Shown here: positions 375 to 64,000 of the stretch, piece after piece
How positions within the stretch are numbered: the first letter of the stretch is position 1
Layout: the number at the start of each line of letters is the position of its first letter
Assembly (NCBI GenBank): GCA_951406725.2
Contig: OX597835.1
Span: forward strand, 35,650,001 to 35,714,000
Reading direction: 5' to 3'
Origin: Octopus vulgaris
Taxonomy: Eukaryota
DNA: 64,000 nucleotides
The notes under the pieces: generated by a model
Databases searched by the model: none
The model's input: the letters and a program-made list of their open reading frames with translations, nothing else
What the model was told of the DNA's origin: nothing
Made by a program: the position numbers and the translations under genes

Positions 375-510
<136 letters not shown>

Positions 511-698
511 CGCCATCATAGATCGTTAGCCACTACACACATTTTTACTCTCCTTGTTTTTTCTGTGTCCCTTTCTGTAGGAGAGCATAGGCTCGAAACG
601 TTAAAGACTCTTTCTATTCCTGAGCGTTATACTAATACATCTGTTTGTTTTGTACACCACCTGTTTTCGTCTTTTGTTTGTTTTCGTAAACTCTCCCT
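511..698 (+). mobile_element. PLE pseudo-LTR fragment, family A
   Basis: Homologous to 45168-45395 (-) and 57180-57372 (+); all carry a hammerhead-like motif. PLE assignment is inferred from the HHR type. Confidence 0.65.
571..606 (+). ncRNA. Minimal type I hammerhead motif, degenerate core
   Basis: cttt CTGTAGG A GAGC-ATAG-GCTC GAAAC GTT aaag: stem I cttt/aaag, 4-bp stem II, palindromic ACGT stem III; core differs from CUGANGA at A6 and A9. Confidence 0.55.
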
Positions 699-1744
699 AT
701 ATATATATAGATAGATAAGGACACTACAGAGTTCGCCTACAGTTTACCTATTGCATTACATACAGACGACTCCTATCCACTCTCCCAGATTAGATTTGGA
801 GCGCCTTGATTATTACGAAACATATGTTCACTCAACCGTGTTGGTCTTCTTTTTAGACGCAAAATATACTCTCACGTGACACGCAAGGGCGTGACGGGAA
901 ACGTACAAAAGGTTATAAACTTAATCATTCTCCAGAAACACTTGACAGAAAACATTCAGAGCATTGATTGTTTGAACTTGTTCACTCAAATACGCCAGCC
1001 TGAACTTACGACGCCAAACATTGTTACTTAATAGTAACACACAGACGTAGCGAGGGCTCTACAAAATTTCTATGACCAGTCATATGACTATCTTCTACCA
1101 ATCAAATACTATCCAAAGCATATAATAATTTGAGCCATGAGCTTCCTATAACAACAGGGCAAACTTCAAACACTATTCCGCAGCAAGACAACTGCTCATA
1201 AGCCACGCCTTTCTATTTGAACTTTTGAAAATCACTGCACGTGTAAATAATTATAAATGATAATATACTATTATATTAGTAATATATAACAACTATTCTC
1301 TATTATTTCAAGTTATTGATATAATAAAAATAATGAAAAATTGTTTAAAGAGATTAACAAAAAAAATGTTCTTTATTTATTTAGTTTATTAGAAGGAGAA
1401 TTCCGAAATAAATATGAAGAGAAACCTAAAAAAGATGTTCTTTACTTACTTAATTCATCGGAGGGAGAATTCCGTAATGAACATGAAGATAAATTTAGAG
1501 CTATAATAACTACAATCTATATTATTACCCCATAGATATAGAGTTAGGCTATTGTAATGGATATCAAAATATTATCAGTTTTTCAGAAGTAACCAGATTT
1601 GAAGTTTCTTGAATACGGATTATTCACAGTAACTAACAAGTAAATGTACCAATAATCGTATATTATAGAATTATGTTCTCAAACATTATCTGCAGTAAAT
1701 TATCTGCTGCAGAATTGTTTCCGGAATTTAGCGCACCAGAGCTC

Positions 1745-14228: not shown

Positions 14229-15103
14229 CTAGCAGAATTGCCCGGCGATGCTCGGGGCTGAATTGCTTGAAAGTACTGTTAATGATTGCACTGAATTATG
14301 ATGATTATTCAGGCAAATATTGATATAAGTTTACGGTGGGAGATAAGGACTTAACGATCAAACGTGTGCCATTGCATTGTTTTGGGGGAACCAAATTTCT
14401 AATGAGCATTATAGGGGCACCAACTTTAAGTTTGAGAATGTGTGGTGGTAGTCCGGGGGGCTCAAAGGAATTGAGTACCTCTATTGGATAGTTGATGACG
14501 TCCTCTGGGTCAGGAGTTGTATCGATAGACTTATATACATAGACTTCCCCAGGAATGATTTTTTGCATTTCATCATTAATATGGTGAACAGTTTTATTCC
14601 TCGGGGCCAGAATAGCCCTTTGGCCAATCCAATCCATATTCTGATAATTAGCTTGTAGATCTGGGAACACTGCATCTCTGAGATCAGAAGGCGTTTTAAC
14701 AATGGTACAAATGGAATCGATGGCAATATTACCATTTTCATCCCCTGGTATTTTGCCTTCGCCAAGTTGAGAGTTAAAAAGGTCGAGTTGCGTCCCCTAG
14801 ACAGTCTGTACCAGGAATAGCTGGATATTGATGGAGTTGAGGGTTAAAAAGGTCGAGTTGCGCCCCCTAGACAGTCTGTGGTTTATGTTTCTGATTCTCG
14901 ACCCCATGTCAAATTTATCGATTTTTTTCAGAACTGGGGAAACTTTTCAAAATTTTCGCTGCGTTAGTTTTGAATTATGACATTGGGCTATGTGTGTGTC
15001 AAGTTTCATCAGAATCGGTTGAAAACCGTGGTCAGAGTGAGGGTACAACCTAACAGACACACAGACACGCACACAGACAAACTGCCGTTTATATATAGAG
15101 AGA
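14229..15103 (-). mobile_element. Internally deleted Helitron with both ends
   Basis: 5' TCTCTCTATATATAAAC at 15103, 3' hairpin cccg-agcatcgc-cggg then CTAG at 14229, inserted between A and T; carries a helicase fragment and a 44-bp internal duplication (14766/14836). Confidence 0.9.
14305..14670 (-). pseudogene. Helitron RepHel PIF1-like helicase fragment
   Basis: RAILAPRN..V..IN, LNSFEPPGLPPHILKLKVGAPIMLIRNL..CNGTRL are hallmark Helitron helicase motifs. Confidence 0.92.
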
Positions 15104-18290: not shown

Positions 18291-18588
18291 TGACATAAAT
18301 TTCAAGAAATCAAAATTTTACCAGAAATGTGTATAAGAAACAATATAGTTTTCACTCTAAAACTACACCTTCTCTACTCAAACAAACTATGTGAACTTTA
18401 GATTGTCAGTACAGTTCATATCCTAGTAGCTTACTGAAAATAACCATAGAGTTCCCCACAAGCCCTTTTACTATAAATAACTTTATTAAACGTGGTTGTT
18501 TCCACGTAGCTAATGATTTTATGTATTCTATGCCATGTATTATGTTTATACACACACACATATAGATAAACAAACGCTCATATGCATA

Positions 18589-18619
<31 letters not shown>

Positions 18620-19257
18620 GTAATCAAAGGTGCAGAAATAGCGTACTCCGAATAAATGAGGTGACGTAATACCATGGTAGAGAGACATCCATCAGTCGTG
18701 TACTCCAAAACTGTCGGAAGGACGTGGGGTTCATGTGAGCGTGCAGGACATAATCCAAAAAATGATTTAAAAAACGGAGAAAAAAATCAAAGAAAAATAC
18801 AAGAAGCATCGTGAGGAAGTAGTAGATGCAAAGTATTAATGAGACGCTCAGAGAAAGAAAAAAGTAGTTGTTTTATATTTCGAAACAGGAAAAACAGAAA
18901 AGTCCAAAGAAAAAGAATCGCCAGTAGACCACGGGTAGTTACATTTTTGAAGTGCTCGGGAAGGTTGGGTGGTAAAGTGACTACAGCGCCTGGGAGCGGA
19001 GTGGGGGAGTAGGATCGGAGAGAAGGGGGTAAAAGTGTGGGAAGAAGGGTTGGAATGGATAGGTAGGAGTGTCTAGGTGGAGAGCATGTGAGGGTTGGGT
19101 GCGGAAGTGGAAGGTGTAGTGATAGGGAGGGGAAGGTGTGGTGGCGCGGGTGGTGAAGATCTAGAAGGAAGCGGAGAATAGGTTGGATGAAGTACGGAGG
19201 GCAGAGGGAGGAAAGGAAAAGGTAAGCGTGCGGGAGTTGGTGGACAAGGGAGTGGTT

Positions 19258-19356
19258 GAGTGAGCGGGTGGAACGGATGGTAGCATGGATGAGTGAGCGG
19301 GTGGAACGGATGGCAGCATGGATGAGTGAGCGGGTGGAACGGATGGTAGCATGGAT
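19258..19356. repeat. 33-bp tandem repeat x3
   Basis: gagtgagcgggtggaacggatgg(t/c)agcatggat three times. Confidence 0.95.
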
Positions 19357-19988
19357 GAGGAGGCGGGAAGTGCAGGCGAGGATGGGTTCGATGAAGGGAG
19401 AAGAATAGGGGGTAACGTAGAACTTTAAGGGGAAGTCACGCGGTGTGACGTGATGATGGAAGCAACGGCTACGGAAAGAGAGATGGGTTGACTGGCGAGT
19501 TTTTTAAACAGCAAGTGAGAGATTTATATAAAGGATTGCAGACATTGAGGAGGAAGGTTGAAAAGAAAACGGGAGAGAAGAGGATGAAGGAATGGAGGTC
19601 CGGTGTGAATGTAGGTGGTAGGTGTGGGAGATGGTGAAGAGGAGGAAAAAGGAAGGAGGGTGGAAGGAGAACTGAAGTAAAATCAAGGGAAGGGAAGTGA
19701 AGCGGAAGAGTCACTGACAAATGATAAAGATTCACAATCAAAGGTGCAGAAATGGCGCGCTACGAAAGAATAAAGTGATGTAACACAATGGTAGAGAGAA
19801 ATCCAAGTATTAGGTTCTCCAAAACAGTCGGAAAGATGAGGGGTCCAGGTTAGCCTGCAGTAAATAATTAATTCAAAAAACGGAACAAAAAAGAAATAGA
19901 GAAGTCAACAAGAAAGAAAAAATAAAGAACGCCAGTACGTAGTAGATGCAAAGTGTTAATAAGGCGTTCGAGGGCGAAAAGAGTAGTC

Positions 19989-20023
19989 GTTTTACATTTC
20001 GAGCCTAGCTCTTCTTCGGAAAC
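19989..20023 (-). ncRNA. Minimal hammerhead motif (U4C core)
   Basis: Minus strand gttt CCGAAGA A GAGC-TAG-GCTC GAAAT GTA aaac. Confidence 0.6.
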
Positions 20024-20289
20024 AGGAAAAACAGGAAAGTCCAAAGGAAAAGAATCGCGAATAGTCCACGTGTAGTTATATTTTTTACACGTGGAATATT
20101 GGCGATTTTCCTTCCTTCTTTTTCCTTTGGACTTCTCTCTTTTTCCTGTTTCCGAAGGGAAGCTAGGCTCGAAACCTTAATCATCTACTCTTTTCCTTCT
20201 CCGAGGGCCTTATTAATACATGGCATGTGCTACGTCCTGATTTTGTTTTTCTTGTTGACTTTTTTCTCTCTCGGTATGTGTGCGTGTGT

Positions 20290-20565
20290 GTGTGAATAAA
20301 GCTGAATTTGAGACACTGTGCATTTTTCTCGCGTACGCGTAGTATCGATCGCAACAGCTGATATACTTGCGCGTACAAATGCATGTTCCCACGGCTTTAT
20401 CGATCGCATTATCACCTGGAATCAACTTTTGTAATTTTTTCAAGACTTATACACGCCCTGATACCGTCGGTATCTACATATCAAATTTGAGCGCAATCGG
20501 ATGGAGGATGCCCGAGATCCTAGAACACACACACACATACAAACAGAACAGATTTTATATAATAC
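20290..20565 (-). mobile_element. Helitron-like 5' end fragment
   Basis: Minus strand TATTATATAAAATCTGTTCTGTTTGTATGTG...CCGATTGCGCTCAAATTTG parallels the 5' region of the 14229-15103 Helitron. Confidence 0.45.
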
Positions 20566-20639: not shown

Positions 20640-20644
<5 letters not shown>

Positions 20645-21100
20645 ATATAATTAGGGTTCAGCGACGATTAGCTTCACCACACACCGAAGTTTAGAAATAG
20701 CAGTCAAAATCCTAGCTATTCTTTCTACTTTAAAGGGAGTTCCCAGGAAAACCAAAGCACTTGAAAACAAATATTTGTGAAATATGTGAAATAATTGAGA
20801 TACGATTATTTATGATTATGGAATCCTACGCTGAAGAGACGAAAATAGTCGGGTAAGGTATGATTATTTATTATTTATGCTTTATAGTGGCTTAATTCCG
20901 AAACGTGCGTCCGTAGGCAACGTATTATAGAATGATTTTCGTCATTTTTTCCCCTTTTGCCTACGTGGTTTGTTTTCAAGTGCTTTAGTTTTTCTGGGAA
21001 CTCCATTTAAAGTAGAAAGAATAGCTAGGATTTTGACTGCTATTTCTAAACTTCGGTGTGTGGTGAAGCTAATCGTTGCTAAACCCTAATTATATAGTAT
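20640..21100. repeat. 132-bp inverted repeat enclosing a hammerhead (PLE fold-back unit)
   Basis: Arms 20640-20771 and 20969-21100 are near-perfect reverse complements; 197-bp spacer. Confidence 0.9.
20825..20917 (+). ncRNA. Type I hammerhead ribozyme motif, fully canonical core
   Basis: cctacg CTGAAGA G...C GAAAC GTGC GTC cgtagg: perfect 6-bp stem I, G10.1-C11.1, ACG/CGT stem III, GUC triplet; predicted cleavage after 20911. Confidence 0.8.
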
Positions 21101-21246: not shown

Positions 21247-21720
21247 TTTTCTCCTCGCAGCCATTCCCTTTCTTCTCTCCCTTTCTCTTGCTCCTCTTCC
21301 CCCCTCCCGTCGTTCACCCGCGACGAGACTTCCGCTGCTGTCTTTCTGGTCTGGCCCTCTCAAGGTAATGGACGACAGTTCTTTTTGCACCGCTCGTCGT
21401 TCATAAAAAATTCCGCGTTCGCAATACTTTTTTTCGTTCGGCGTTAACAGCAATTCTTATCTTGTTTTTCCTTGTCCTGTCTTTTACTGTTTATAATTTG
21501 TACTGTCGTTATTGTCCTGTTTTTTTACCATTTTTACCCTCCTGCGAAAAGATCTCAGAATTTTAATTGATTTGCTTTTCGCAGGAAGGAAAGTTTCTTG
21601 TCGAAGATACGTCTCGCTTTTATCCTTCGAAACGTAGAGTAGATGAAACCATAGCGACTGAAGAAGGGTTTTTTTCTTTGTGTTAATTCTCCTGTACTCT
21701 ATTTTTTTGTTGTTTTAAAA
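21245..21720 (+). mobile_element. Probable PLE-related repeat fragment
   Basis: (TA)n-flanked, pyrimidine-rich; 11-bp hairpin at 21541/21575 and scattered HHR-like boxes. Family identity is inferred. Confidence 0.3.
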
Positions 21721-22382: not shown

Positions 22383-22384
<2 letters not shown>

Positions 22385-22500
22385 GCGTAAGCACATAAAT
22401 GTAAAGCAAGGTGGAAAACTTTTAACAAAACTGTTCGACGAACAGGAAAGTGAAACTCTGAGTAACAGCTTTTGTTATATTTCTGCTGCCTTAAATAAAG
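22383..22500 (+). mobile_element. PLE pLTR fragment family C with HHR motif at 22431-22468
   Basis: ctgt TCGACGA ACAGGAAAGT GAAAC TCTGA GTA acag; homologous to 34030-34268 and 42212-42356. Confidence 0.65.
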
Positions 22501-22524
22501 TATATATATATATATATATATATG

Positions 22525-22725
22525 ACCGCGTGTGTATCGTTGGCGATTTTCTTTCTCTGTCTTCCCTTCCTTGGACATTTCCTCTCTAGGTTTCTGACGA
22601 AGAGCTCTGCTCGAAACGTTAAATCCTTCTTCATTCTTTCCTTTCCTGAGCGTCCAATAACACTATACTTGTTCCACGTTCTAGCATTGTTGTGTTTTCT
22701 CTTTGTTCATGTTTGGATTAATTAT
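22525..22725 (+). mobile_element. PLE pLTR fragment family B
   Basis: Homologous to 27110-27293 (downstream of the GIY-YIG ORF) and 56435-56625 (-). Confidence 0.7.
22589..22625 (+). ncRNA. Minimal hammerhead motif, canonical CUGACGA box
   Basis: ggttt CTGACGA A GAGC-TCT-GCTC GAAAC GTT aaatc: 5-bp stem I (one GU), loopless palindromic ACGT stem III. Confidence 0.72.
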
Positions 22726-23549: not shown

Positions 23550-24320
23550 GCCGCGACCAGGATTTCGAGACCCAGTCTCAATACCTGGCCCGCCTGTTCA
23601 GGCTTCGAGGATACCCACCTACCCTGGTCTTGAACGCCCTCGCCCGCGCTCGTCGCATCCACCGCACCACCGCCCTTTCTCCTTCCAATCACCCATCACC
23701 CAACCGCACCCCCTTTCCCCTCCTTTTCCCCCCCTCTACTCTACCCCTTCGTCGGAAGATACTTCGTGCCTTCCGTCGTCTCCAGCTCGATTCCACGACT
23801 CACCGCATTTTTCTCCAACCCACCCCTATCCTCCTTCAAACGAGCCCGGAATCTACGCGACCTCCTGGTCCGTAGCACCCTCCCTTCTTCCCCCTCGGCC
23901 CCACTCGGATCCTTCCCGTGCTCCAGATCCCGCTGCAACTTCTCCCCCTTCATCACCCACACCACTGCTGTCACCGGTTCCAACCGGCGAACTGTACGTA
24001 TCAGGCATTCTTTTACGTGCACCTCGTCTGGACTCATATACTGCATTAAATGCAACCTCTGCGGAATGCTGTATATAGGACAGACGGGACGCCAGTTGTC
24101 AGACCGATTCGCCGAACATCTGATTGATGTTCGTCTACCCTCCGATTCTCCCGTCGCACGTTACTTCCGCTCGGCCAGCCATTCCCCCGATGACATCTCG
24201 GTGTTTGGTCTTGCCCCACACAACGGCTCTCCACAATCTAGGCTTCACTTGGAGCATCGGCTCATATTCCTTCTACAGACTCTAACCCCACACGGACTCA
24301 ACACAGCCCCCTCCTCTTAG
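23549..24320 (+). pseudogene. PLE (Neptune-type) RT thumb plus GIY-YIG endonuclease, 5'-truncated, one frameshift
   Basis: LFRLRGYP thumb motif, then FKRARNLRDLLV, C..RC linker, FTCTSSGLIYCIKCNLCGMLYIGQTGRQLSDRFAEH...LEHRLIFLLQTLTPHGLN. Confidence 0.92.
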
Positions 24321-27029: not shown

Positions 27030-27293
27030 AACTCTCTTGTTTTTAAAAATCATGATTCGTCTACCTCTCAACTTCTGTTCTTTCAACATGTGATCTCTTG
27101 AGCACCACCAGCAAAAATATTTTTTTCGTCTGTCTTCCCTTCTTGGGATCTTTCCTTCTCCTTGTTTCCGACGAAGAGCTCCGCTCGAAACGTTAAACCC
27201 TCCTTCCCTTCTTTCCTGAGCGTCAAATAATACTTTAATTGTGTCACGTCCTCGCGTTGCTGTTTTTTTCTGTGTTTTCTTGTTTGGATTATC
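27030..27293 (+). mobile_element. PLE pLTR family B with HHR motif at 27164-27198
   Basis: gttt CCGACGA A GAGC-TCC-GCTC GAAAC GTT aaac. Confidence 0.7.
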
Positions 27294-27311
27294 TATATAT
27301 ATATATATATA

Positions 27312-33971: not shown

Positions 33972-34029
33972 TACATATGTGTGTGTATGTATGTATATAT
34001 ATGAATCTCTCTCTCTCTATATATATATA

Positions 34030-34268
34030 CCGGAGTAAACACATAAATGTAAAGCAAGGTGGGAAAAGAGTACTCAAATACCAGGGGTTGAGTAATATGC
34101 TTTATTTAAAAACAGCAGAAATTCAACAAAACCTGTTACGCTGAGTTTCACGTTCCCGTTCGTCGGATAGTTTTTGTTAAACAATTTCTTTTAACAAAAA
34201 CTGTCTAACGAACGGGAACGTGAAACTCAGAGTAACAGGTTTTGTTGAATTTCTGCTGTTTTTAAATA
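34030..34268. mobile_element. PLE pLTR family C fold-back with an HHR motif in each arm
   Basis: 78-bp arms 34103-34180 and 34191-34268 (4 mismatches), 10-nt spacer; HHRs at 34133-34170 (-) and 34201-34238 (+). Confidence 0.8.
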
Positions 34269-34387: not shown

Positions 34388-34786
34388 GTGGTTGTGTGGT
34401 AAGAAGCTCGCTTCTCGACCACATGGTTCAGGGTTCAATCCCACTGCGTGGCACCTTGGGCAGGTGTCTCCTACTATAGTCTCGGGTCGACCAAAGACTT
34501 CTGAGTGGATTTGGTAGACGGAAACTGAAAGAAGCCCATCATATATATATGTATGTATATATTTGTGTGCGTCTGTGTTTGTCCCCTCACCCGCCATCAC
34601 TTAACAACGGATGCTGGTGTGTTTATATCCCCGTAAATAGTCGTTCAACAAAAAATACCGATAGAATAAGTACTTGGCTTACAAGACTATGTCCTGGGGT
34701 CAATTTCTTCGACTAACACCCTTTAAAGCAGTGCTCCAGTATGGTCGCAATCAAATGACTGAAACAAGTAAAAGAATAAAAGAATA
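34388..34786 (+). mobile_element. SINE family B
   Basis: Colinear with 6656-7140. Confidence 0.85.
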
Positions 34787-34872
34787 TATATATGTATAAA
34801 TACATATATATATATATGTGTGTGTGTGAGTGTCTGTGTGTCTGTGTGTGTGCATGTATATATATATATATG

Positions 34873-35601
34873 TGTGTGGCAGGATGGATACTGAGATCCT
34901 TGAAGATAAGAGACCAAGAAAGTATGTTGACCCTGTGGAGAACCTTTAGTTTCAGCACCCTGGACTACTGTTCCCAGTTATGGTCAGCACATCGTGCCAA
35001 ACTAATAGCGGAGCTTGAAGCAACCCAACGCCTCTACACTAAAAAGATTGAAACAGTGCAGTCAATGAGCCATAGGGAGAGTCCGAGAAAACTACAGCTT
35101 TACTCATTGGAGCGAAGGCGTGACAGATACGCAATAATATACATATGGAAAATCCTAGAAGGGCTAGTACTTAACTTTGGCATTGAGTGTTATACAAATG
35201 CCAGAACTGGCCACCATTGCATTGCACCAAAGGTACCGTCCAGTCCATCTAAATTCAGGAGCAGAGGCTGCAATAGTCTAGGGTTCAAAGGCCCACAGCT
35301 CTTCAAAGCTCTGCCACAAAAATTAAGAAATTTGCATAAGATGGAAGTAGATGTCTTCACAAAGGAACTAAACATCCTCCTCTCCACAATGCCAGATAAA
35401 CCAACGGTCCGACATGAGATACAAACAAGAGTTGCGGAATCAAACTCAATTATACATCAAATGAGCCAGAAGATGGGAAAAAGGCACATATAGGTGTGGT
35501 GATGGGAAACACCCAGGTTCAGGAAGTCAGAAAGACCATGGGGCTGCTCCAGCATGACCACATGACCCATGGCTGAAACGAGTAAAAGTGAAAGAGTAAA
35601 A
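34873..35601 (+). pseudogene. CR1-group LINE 3' end (RT C-terminus plus 3' UTR)
   Basis: GWILRS...LDYCSQLWS...LEATQRLYTKKI...LQLYSLERRRDRYAIIYIWKILEG...PQLFKALP...PDKP; the tail resembles the SINE B tail. Confidence 0.88.
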
Positions 35602-41889: not shown

Positions 41890-42211
41890 TTAAAATTATT
41901 ATTCCAAACTAACAGGGAAAAATTCAATTAAGAAATGCTAAATCAAATTTCACAAACTATATTATATATATATATGAATAAGAAAAAACACATTTTATCA
42001 ATACAACAATGAAAAAATTAAATTATACCATATAGAAAAAAATAAATATAAGATAAAAACATATACCAATGATTAAGTAATGTGCAAAATAATAAATAAA
42101 ACATATATTTGGTAAATATTATACACACACCCACACACACACACAGAAACACTTACACACACACACACCCACACACATATATATATGCCTGAGTATATAT
42201 ATATATATATA

Positions 42212-42356
42212 TACCAGAGTAAGCGCATAAATGCGAAACAAGGTGAAAGAAATAGTACTCGAATACCAGAGGTAGAGTAATATGGTTTATTGAAAAGCAG
42301 CAAAATTATCACAAAAACTGTTACTCAGAGTTTCATGTTCCCGTTCGTCGGATAGA
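42212..42356 (-). mobile_element. PLE pLTR family C with HHR motif at 42318-42355
   Basis: Minus strand ctat CCGACGA ACGGGAACAT GAAAC TCTGA GTA acag. Confidence 0.65.
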
Positions 42357-56625: not shown

Positions 56626-57179
56626 ACATGTGTGTACGTGTGTGTGTGTGTGTGTGTGTGCGTGTGTGTGTGTGTGTGCGTGTGTGTGTGTATGTATTAT
56701 CTCCGTATGCATGTATGAATGTAATGTTTACGAGTAGATAAGTGTTAGTTCATGTTACAAGATATTTTAAAATCACTGAGTGGGGCATAAGATGAACGCA
56801 CAGTTTCTTTTTTGTAAGGAACCAGTGTAAATCAAGCAAGTAATTTGAAAACTGCTTGAAGAACATTGTGTTCCAATGATTGCTTTTGGAACTACATGTA
56901 ACGGGAACTCACTCTTTGCTTGTGATAGTATTTAAGTTAAACCATTTTTTGTCATATAACGCTTAATTGAGTAGTACACGAACACACACACAAACATACA
57001 CATGTACAAACGCATACACACACGCGTGCGCGCATTGACCACTTCCCAGCACCTACATCATCATCCAAACACCTACACATGCATACACGCACACGTCAAG
57101 GTCACCAGTCCTCTTCCACACGCACCACGCTCTCATATACACACGCACGCGCATCTCCTCTTCTTCCTAGCTCTCCTGT

Positions 57180-57372
57180 GTGACACCTCTGTCCGGCATT
57201 CGCCATGATGGATCGCTAGCCACTAAACCTTTTTCAGCCTTCTCTCCCTGTTTACTTCTGTGTTCCTTTCTGTTGAAGAGCGTAGGCTCGAAATGTAAAC
57301 GACTTTCTTACTTCCCGAACGTTAAACTAGTACATCTGTTTGTTGTTTATACACCCGTTTTCGTCTTTTATA
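57180..57372 (+). mobile_element. PLE pLTR family A with HHR motif at 57266-57301
   Basis: cttt CTGTTGA A GAGC-GTAG-GCTC GAAAT GTA aacg. Confidence 0.65.
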
Positions 57373-62399: not shown

Positions 62400-63137
62400 C
62401 AGGGGTTGGACAAAATAATGGTAACGCCTTAAAATTTCAAACAAATTTATTTTAATAAGGAGTAGGACCGCCTTAGGCAGTAATTACAGCTTCAATTCTA
62501 CAAGGTATGGTCTCGTAAAAGTTTGAATTGTTTCAATTTTTATCAATTCTTCAGATAAAACAGTCTCCAGTTCTTGTAGTGATGATGCTGGAGGATATCG
62601 ACTCCTTACTTATTTTTCTAAAATGTACCATAAATGTTCAATGATATTGAGATGTGAGGACAGATAAGATGTTCAACTTCACCAGAATGTTCCTCGTGCC
62701 ATTCAGTAACAACCTTAGCTGTGCGAATTGGTGCATTATCATCCTGAAAGATTGCGTTCCCCTCCAGAAACAGTTCCGCAGCCATAGGATGCGCTTGATG
62801 AGATAAAATGCTTAAATAGTCTTGACTATTAATTCTGCAATGAAGGAAAACCATTGGGTCGGCGGATTTCCAAGATATAGCCCCCGCCACCCAAACCATA
62901 ACAGTTGGATGAAGGCGGTCTGGGTCAAATGCTTCTTTTGGCTGTCTCCACAGATATACTCGGCCGGTGGTCGGAAATAAGGTAAAGAATGATTCGTCCG
63001 AAAAAATAACATTCTTCCACTGCTCTAGGAACCAATTCTGGAGGTTTTTAATCCACTCTAAACGCTTTGCAACATTTGTTTTTTGGAAATAGTGTTTTTC
63101 TGATTGCAGATCTCCCGTGAAATCCGACTTTGCAGGC
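62400..63137 (-). pseudogene. Tc1-like transposase remnant with one TIR
   Basis: TA|CAGGGGTTGGACAAAATAATGG terminus; MVW..AIS...INSQDYLSIL...IFQDDNAPIRTAKVVTEW catalytic region, frameshifted. Confidence 0.9.
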
Positions 63138-64000
63138 CATCACTACTGTAGTGGTGTTGCCAGGTAGAAAGTGATAACTGTGATCGACAGTTTCACTTCG
63201 AAAATGACATTCCACCACAGAATCTTGAAGGCCGACCGCTAAAGTCGAATTGTAGAGGACACTTTGAGAATTCTGTTCCTTAGATTAGAAATGAACTCTA
63301 TATTTGAGTTGAAATAAATTTTCATTCTCTCATAATTTTCAGCCATGGAGCGAGTAACAAAATATCAGACCAGACCTCCAAGGAATGGACGACTTAACAA
63401 GATAAAGCAATAAAATTTACAAATAAAACCTTCTGGACAAACAAAACGAAATATAATTTTATTGAGTTTCTCGCACATAATCAGACACCTCGGAGGATGA
63501 AGAAGAAGAAGAAGGAGGAGGGGGAGGAGGGGGAGAAGAAGAAGAAGGAGGAGGAGGAGAAGAAAAAAGGAAAGAAGGAGAAAGCAAATGAGTAGAAAAA
63601 GGATGTGGAGGAAAAAGAAGAAAACGGTGGATGATAAGAAGAGAAAATAATTAGAAAAATAAAATTAAGAAGGATGAAGAGAAAGCGAAATCGTTGAAGG
63701 AAGAGGAAGAAGAACAAAAGGATATCACACCAAGATTCAGACATGTTGATAACGACGATCATGATCATGATGATTATGATGAATTTCATGTAATTTAAAA
63801 TTAAGATGCGTTTGAGTATCCATATATCAATACATAATGCGTAGGCACACGCGCACACATACTTGCATACATACATACATACATACATACATACATGCAT
63901 ACATGCATACATACATACATACATACATATATATATATATATCCGCCACAAGTGCATAGACACGTGTATCTATAGAGGCATAAGTTAGCATAAACTTATA

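Follow-up and report, generated by a model that had tools for sequence, protein, structure and literature searches.

The region described here lies in a 64,000-nt stretch of the Octopus vulgaris genome (contig OX597835.1), referred to below as the window, with positions counted from its first letter. Read on the minus strand, the insertion consists of a short inverted pLTR copy C (20087 to about 20265), a direct pLTR copy B (20085-19736), a 787-nt spacer, a second direct pLTR copy A (18948-18622) and a (TA)n tract. Copy A (18622..18948, 327 nt, minus strand) forms the 3′ end of the insertion and abuts the (TA)n at 18621. Copy B (19736..20085, 350 nt, minus strand) is positioned upstream of the body, which is made up by the C-rich spacer (18949..19735, minus strand). 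Copy C, on the plus strand and ~180 nt long, faces B in head-to-head orientation, with an 11-nt loop between the two, and adjoins a (TG)n tract. The left target is a (TG)n(TA)n microsatellite (18581..18621), and a similar tract occupies 20275-20298 on the right side. As both flanks of the insertion consist of microsatellite, a target-site duplication is not resolvable. A preliminary description of this DNA had reported direct repeats of ~330-350 bp, a third, inverted copy, and a strand-biased spacer of ~790 bp with a 3x33-bp repeat and no RT; all of these features are recovered here, with the inverted copy starting at 20087.

In an end-to-end blastn alignment the direct repeats A and B are 73% identical (E 1.6e-55). 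Over ungapped columns, the identity amounts to 78% between A and B (326 columns, K2P 0.26) and to 81% for both A-C and B-C, so that the three copies are ~20% diverged from each other. Within 147 shared columns, private changes are evenly spread (11 in A, 12 in B, 13 in C), and three columns differ in all copies. Such a star-like pattern would be expected from one old insertion in which identical copies have decayed by ~10% each; equal distances also fit three separate subfamilies. The preliminary description further noted a similar decayed frame in each repeat, which we find in A and B and which is absent from the ~180 nt of C. Considered as a constrained coding motif, this frame was rejected: changes between A and B number 11, 7 and 10 at codon positions 1, 2 and 3, and 6 of the 24 changed codons are synonymous. 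On the evidence of these substitutions it is a by-product of nucleotide similarity, with no coding constraint seen. Another pLTR frame in B, tried as a GIY-YIG core, was likewise discarded (P 0.046 as the best of six frames; missing in A, P 0.84).

Copy A reaches ~155 nt past the 3′ end of C, far more than a typical PLE tail of 30-40 nt; C may be eroded. This stretch (18622-18777; counterpart in B, 19736-19890) outruns the 3′ ends of both C and the solo pLTR copies described below, yet closes in a similar TTTGATTA motif. It is possibly explained by a second RT start site or by an unusually long tail. Within the 64-kb window, A has the only other copy of the distal 145 nt of B. B also contains a pyrimidine tract ending in CAG at 19855, which could be a candidate splice acceptor.

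Copy B harbors a minimal type I hammerhead (19988..20024, minus strand), composed of a 5-bp stem I, a core with U4C, a bulged A, a 4-bp stem II and U15.2-G16.2. The descriptor used, which assumes a fixed geometry, predicts the cut after GUA at 19993, and when the hammerhead is folded alone, stems I and II are present in the lowest-energy structure. Its geometry agrees with the published alignment of PLE pLTRs (PMC4209133 supplement). Rfam gives no match in the window at the gathering threshold, and even with E values up to 10 none of the three sites is called as a hammerhead. In A, 18 nt spanning the core and stem II are gone, while the hammerhead of C is altered by U4C, A9G and a stem II reduced to 3/4, with 2 bp in stem I and no palindrome in stem III. 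Judged by these motifs, one of the three hammerheads, namely that of B, is intact and of the minimal PLE type, and no 1.1-kb monomer can be cut from the locus at present. The position-17 nucleotides at 19993 and 18874 are indeed 1119 nt apart, as initially described, but this distance is not the unit length: the true unit measures 1137 nt, and the shorter value is due to the deletion in A. Similarly, the loss of core and stem II in A stands, whereas the microhomology at the deletion is 2 nt (TC) in the alignment and not the proposed ttcg.

Several properties bear on the activity of the hammerhead in B. U4C is common to B, C and the solo copies E and F and may be a family trait; in a viroid context it reduces activity in vitro (PMC3088659). 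Minimal hammerheads of PLE pLTRs are described as needing a dimer partner and cleaving poorly (PMC4209133). In a transcript reading through C, 31 of the 36 nucleotides of the B ribozyme are computed to pair with C. The palindrome U15.2-A16.2 is used by natural minimal hammerheads (PMC4209133 supplement), and the U15.2-A16.2 of A may represent a functional variant instead of decay.

The window contains further pLTR-like copies. A profile constructed from six copies (A-F) detects nine pLTR-like places at E values up to 0.01, comprising the six by construction and three of a second family. The solo pLTRs D (22522-22712, plus), E (27100-27295, plus) and F (56632-56436, minus), each of ~190 nt, lie between microsatellites and carry well-formed minimal hammerheads. 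They feature a palindromic AACGTT, U4C in two of three, and matching 3′ ends. Furthermore, a 5′-truncated 3′ fragment of a Neptune-type PLE is located at 23550-24320 (plus strand), with thumb, Cys linker and GIY-YIG (Pfam E 0.006, below the cut-off). It starts at a (TA)n and is followed by a T-rich tract and no recognisable pLTR; by eye, its part at 23634-24320 resembles the Neptune rows in Fig. S2 of PMC8557442. PLE expansions have been reported in Octopus vulgaris (PMC13282606).

The unit offset of the insertion is 1137 nt, and the 5′ edge of A (18948) is in exact register with the 5′ edge of B (20085), at the inversion. The predicted ribozyme cut is situated 93 nt 3′ of this unit edge. In the alignment, A and B begin in the same column, C, D and F begin within 12 columns, and E begins ~16 columns in; the edges of D, E and F were placed by eye, and these copies are only ~60% identical to A, B and C. 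The common edge suggests that the RNA had a fixed 5′ end at this position, upstream of the cut by 93 nt, and such an end combined with a template jump would explain the exact register of A and B. A linear ribozyme-cut monomer would be expected to halt RT at the cut and a circle anywhere, neither of which matches the observed edge. We infer that the pLTR carries the hammerhead as a passenger, and that the ribozyme does not determine where the unit ends. As the end of B defines the visible repeat, the edge argument is partly circular, and it leans on the solo copies and on a presumed ORF boundary. In agreement with a fixed RNA 5′ end and a template jump, RT of an Anolis PLE in vitro is initiated internally, close to the 3′ end of the pLTR, on AT-rich DNA; mutants of the ribozyme insert normally, and no RNA ending at the cut is seen (PMC11167929).

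The minus strand of the spacer contains 44.5% C and 7.9% G. Among window stretches, the combination of a GC content of at least 0.45 and a GC skew of at least 0.4 is confined to the spacer and the GIY-YIG fragment at 23.6-24.3 kb, both of which are C-rich on the reading strand. A frame of 184 stop-free codons extends from KTRQSTHLSF to GAVVTLPPNLPEH (18952..19503, minus strand), and the run continues into A; just upstream, at about 19500-19530, are a stop and a probable frame change. Taken alone, a run of this length lacks significance (P 0.5, from 5000 Markov simulations), and it was set aside as evidence by itself. A codon-position model trained on the GIY-YIG fragment places the stop-free frame on top (-683.7 versus -690.6 and -699.5), a weak preference that is reversed in the spacer part after the 33-bp repeat. 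The presence of zero stops in 184 codons fits 11% neutral decay (P 0.30). The 33-bp (11-codon) tandem repeat at 19253..19367 (minus strand) comprises 3.5 copies with 93% matches. Its units differ by just one or two bases, and the repeat is therefore likely younger than the insertion and the divergence of A, B and C, having expanded locally after insertion, and is probably no feature of the element. The spacer has no second copy in the 64-kb window, where six other pLTR-like copies are present.

We take the translated spacer to show four successive stretches of resemblance to the N-terminal part of Neptune ORFs from corals and fish, namely TRQSTHLSFRSRCF, TSRLLIHATIRS, LSSLCPPYFIQ and VVTLPPNLP, the last being presumably the motif ahead of the conserved pre-RT block. 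VVTLPPNLP ends 9 nt before A. Based on these presumed motifs and on composition, the spacer is probably the N-terminal head of a Neptune-type PLE ORF, ending before RT. Pfam gives no match to RT or GIY-YIG in any of the three minus-strand frames of the element, which argues for a derivative and not an autonomous element. The spacer frame itself has no Pfam match (a HEAT match in another frame, E 0.13, is below the cut-off) and no match in a word-index search against longer proteins. Full phmmer returns two matches, both discarded as they comprise only the 11-residue repeat over many stretches. The top ESM Atlas scores of 0.82 and 0.76 are under the lead level, and a single-sequence AlphaFold prediction (pLDDT 46.6, helices 38-117, no fold match) is uninformative. 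The GIY-YIG fragment, serving as positive control, reaches a Pfam E of 0.006, below the cut-off, and no animal PLE was returned by the other searches run on it, one of which gave a single bacterial GIY-YIG locus that was not used. The libraries tried with this control, a set that excludes the full phmmer library and ESM Atlas, thus seem devoid of animal PLEs, and their negative results for the spacer therefore weigh little. No Neptune N-terminal sequences for comparison were found in the published supplements searched.

Compared to EN+ PLEs, the locus shares a pLTR with a minimal type I hammerhead, a partial tandem with an adjoining inverted 5′-truncated copy and an AT-rich or microsatellite target, and differs in that Pfam finds no single ORF with RT and GIY-YIG in the three minus-strand frames. 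The link to PLEs made in the preliminary description, which noted pLTRs with hammerhead motifs and no RT, is supported. The general layout of PLE insertions is described in PMC8557442 and PMC8969392, and the order of inverted short copy, direct copy, body and direct copy is published for Pen2a_Av, for a deletion derivative and for captured host sequences between pLTRs (PMC3846280). In these Adineta vaga elements (Pen2a_Av, the Pen2 deletion derivative and Pen3a-NRPS), two direct pLTRs are likewise accompanied by a shorter inverted one with a palindromic junction, and bodies are deleted or replaced, with movement in trans (PMC3846280). They are of Penelope/Poseidon type, with target-site duplications of 8-10 bp and pLTRs of ~200 bp (PMC3846280), whereas the octopus locus has pLTRs of ~345 nt, a microsatellite target and a body that is probably the ORF head only. 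Neptune-clade PLEs share with it a pLTR-borne minimal hammerhead, in which a bulged base precedes stem II and stem III has 2 nt, as well as (TA)n targets and many solo pLTRs in the genome (PMC4209133; PMC8557442). In contrast to these elements of ~3 kb, the unit measures 1137 nt and lacks RT and GIY-YIG matches, and its clade is assigned from presumed motifs and from a separate neighbouring fragment. R2 SIDEs, according to PMC6765202 and PMC3414825, are also ribozyme-bearing, ORF-less derivatives of an autonomous retroelement that are moved in trans; they belong to a different superfamily with an HDV-like ribozyme and are proven to be multi-copy, whereas the present locus is known from one copy in the window.

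Our preferred reading, with a probability of roughly one half, is that the locus represents a one-off, old and inert PLE insertion, probably of Neptune type, that already had a short body at the time of its insertion via a template jump. While the layout, registers, divergences and ribozyme states are observed, the following four steps, like the identity of the ORF, are our reconstruction. A PLE RT-endonuclease acting in trans would have nicked the (TA)n tract. cDNA synthesis would have started inside the PLE RNA at the pLTR 3′ end and run to the fixed RNA 5′ end, giving rise to A. The RT may then have jumped to a PLE RNA whose end or point of entry lay ~790 nt inside the body, ahead of the RT region, and copied body and pLTR to the same 5′ end, producing the spacer and B. 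Fold-back priming would finally have yielded the inverted C. Later, A, B and C would have decayed separately by ~10% each, A would have lost its ribozyme core, and the 33-bp repeat would have expanded. A one-off deleted PLE was the fallback of the preliminary description, and it turns out to be the better reading than a retrozyme family. At the level of a single locus, a one-off event and a family that such an event founded look alike.

Such a family would be a non-autonomous, SIDE-like PLE mini-element, in which a Neptune RT acting in trans makes repeated copies of a 1137-nt pLTR plus ORF head from linear RNA; the RNA 5′ end and the start site of RT, and not the ribozyme, would define where the unit ends. 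We regard such a family as rather unlikely. The common 5′ edge fits a family equally well, the unit has the cis parts that suffice in Adineta to mobilise unrelated sequence in trans (PMC3846280), and non-autonomous PLEs that form pLTRs exist (PMC8557442). Against this, the 64 kb, albeit a small sample, contain no second copy of the spacer and, A aside, none of the distal 145 nt of B, and all copies are ~20% diverged. The more specific proposal of a multi-copy Neptune mini-element arising from an end-to-end template jump, which would have kept the pLTR and an RT-binding ORF head and dispensed with the enzymes, appears unlikely. Alternatively, a full-length PLE may have inserted in this layout and subsequently lost ~2 kb, including RT, endonuclease and 3′ UTR, by DNA deletion. 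Internally deleted copies between inverted pLTRs have been reported (PMC3846280), and hammerheads of a coral Neptune are spaced 3033 nt apart, compared to 1137 here (PMC4209133 supplement). The last ~35 nt of the spacer are also faintly similar to the sequence following the stop codon of the 23.6-kb GIY-YIG fragment (shuffle P 0.05), but 24 of 148 windows along the spacer equal or exceed this resemblance, and the spacer end was rejected as a native 3′ UTR. Moreover, the right breakpoint of such a deletion would have to hit within ~10-35 nt of the 5′ edge of A out of ~2 kb, and we consider a later deletion improbable.

Rather than deriving from a single event, the locus could be a chimera, in which template switches or nested insertion brought together pLTRs of different subfamilies, or in which non-PLE (host) RNA was captured; it could then be younger than the divergence of the repeats implies. 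The identity of only 78-81% between A, B and C would be compatible with this, as would an 11-nt insertion in C where D, E and F hold extra sequence and the fact that no tool supports the ORF identity of the spacer; for Pen1_Av, spacers acquired by capture and measuring 0.9-1.5 kb have been reported (PMC3846280). The star-like divergence, the damage at conserved ribozyme positions in A and C, and a spacer composition that agrees with the PLE coding strand in the window weigh in the other direction, making a chimera decidedly unlikely. The preliminary description favored a retrozyme family with a 1.1-kb hammerhead-to-hammerhead circle; in a long non-LTR retrozyme of this kind, two hammerheads would release a ~1.1-kb monomer that is circularised and re-inserted by rolling reverse transcription. 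The plausible minimal hammerhead in B and a total of 1.29 units at the locus are in line with this, circles have been proposed for PLEs (PMC4209133), and animal retrozymes are proposed to be pLTR-derived, with consensus lengths of up to 972 bp (10.64898/2026.07.22.740005). Nevertheless, with one of three ribozymes intact, and this of a type that requires a dimer partner, carries the activity-lowering U4C (PMC3088659) and would pair largely with C, with the 5′ stop neither at the cut (93 nt away) nor arbitrary, with repeats ~20% diverged, with no excess self-pairing and with an ORF-like spacer, we consider it a very remote alternative.

The comparison with known retrozymes leads in the same direction. 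Animal retrozymes are described as tandem units of ~170-400 nt with less than 45% GC, high self-pairing and canonical type I ribozymes (PMC7229834), and a 2026 survey, which ascribes them to a pLTR origin, requires two consecutive complete hammerheads at a period of at most 1000, with units up to 972 bp (10.64898/2026.07.22.740005). At the octopus locus, the hammerhead of A is deleted, that of C is damaged and inverted, and that of B alone is intact, with minimal geometry and U4C instead of the canonical type I form and no Rfam match at the three sites. The unit, at 1137 nt and 48% GC, is longer than the tandem units of animal retrozymes (about 150-450 nt, in one survey up to 972) and above their GC limit of 45%. 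Its circular fold is 27% paired, at -103.5 compared to -102.9 +/- 5.8 kcal/mol for 12 shuffles (z -0.1), unlike the self-paired animal monomers (PMC7229834). With regard to a non-coding nature, the unit holds 184 open codons (chance P 0.5) and a presumed likeness to a PLE ORF head, with no database match. Animal non-LTR retrozymes share with it the lack of enzymes, a type I hammerhead, more than one unit and a probable PLE origin; they form arrays of short, low-GC, self-paired units with a complete hammerhead in each, whereas here 1.29 units are found, with one intact minimal ribozyme, no structure in excess and what is probably a remnant of an ORF (PMC7229834; 10.64898/2026.07.22.740005). As far as the sequence allows, the unit is related to retrozymes by origin, and any retrozyme-like working is putative.

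Published examples exist of the layout, of deleted bodies and of solo ribozyme pLTRs, and as a single decayed insertion the locus is of minor importance, given that PLE insertions with such a layout and with deleted or captured bodies are known. No description of the element or of ORF-head mini-PLEs was found in the literature, mostly open-access, repeat databases aside. Its mechanistic interest is that both direct repeats and most solo copies have a common 5′ limit, which precedes the cut by 93 nt. If this edge holds genome-wide, it would favor a fixed RNA 5′ end and template jump over hammerhead-cut circles as the origin of partial tandems in PLEs. If the unit is multi-copy, it would constitute a new kind of non-autonomous PLE, a SIDE-like parasite intermediate between PLEs and animal retrozymes. 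Were the mini-element reading true, it would provide direct genomic evidence that pLTRs form by jumping from a fixed RNA 5′ end and not by ribozyme-cut circles.

The window as a whole is rich in microsatellites and contains further repeats. The second solo pLTR family, located at 510-716 (plus), 45396-45150 (minus) and 57174-57369 (plus), carries U instead of A at core position 6 in all three copies, which may be a family-wide core variant or derive from a dead ancestor; the fixed-geometry descriptor mis-scores these copies (G, H and J), and its rows for them were disregarded. At 20640-21100, inverted arms of 132 nt (95% complementary) enclose a 197-nt core, with a weak Rfam match to a type I hammerhead at 20825-20917 (plus strand, E 0.058) whose stem II is long and whose position 17 is G. 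The element is without other copy in the window and probably represents either an inverted insertion, of younger age, from another PLE family or a MITE. A single-copy stretch at 21480-21720 (plus strand), with CGAAACGTA at 21628 and CTGAAGA downstream, is possibly a decayed or permuted hammerhead. A dispersed repeat family with internal inverted arms is represented by three copies (22383-22505, 33990-34268 and 42178-42355) of 81-91% identity. Judged by eye, we take 14305-14843 (minus), 34780-35493 (plus) and 62618-63139 (minus) to be pieces of a Helitron PIF1-like helicase, a LINE 3′ end and a piece of a Tc1/mariner transposase.
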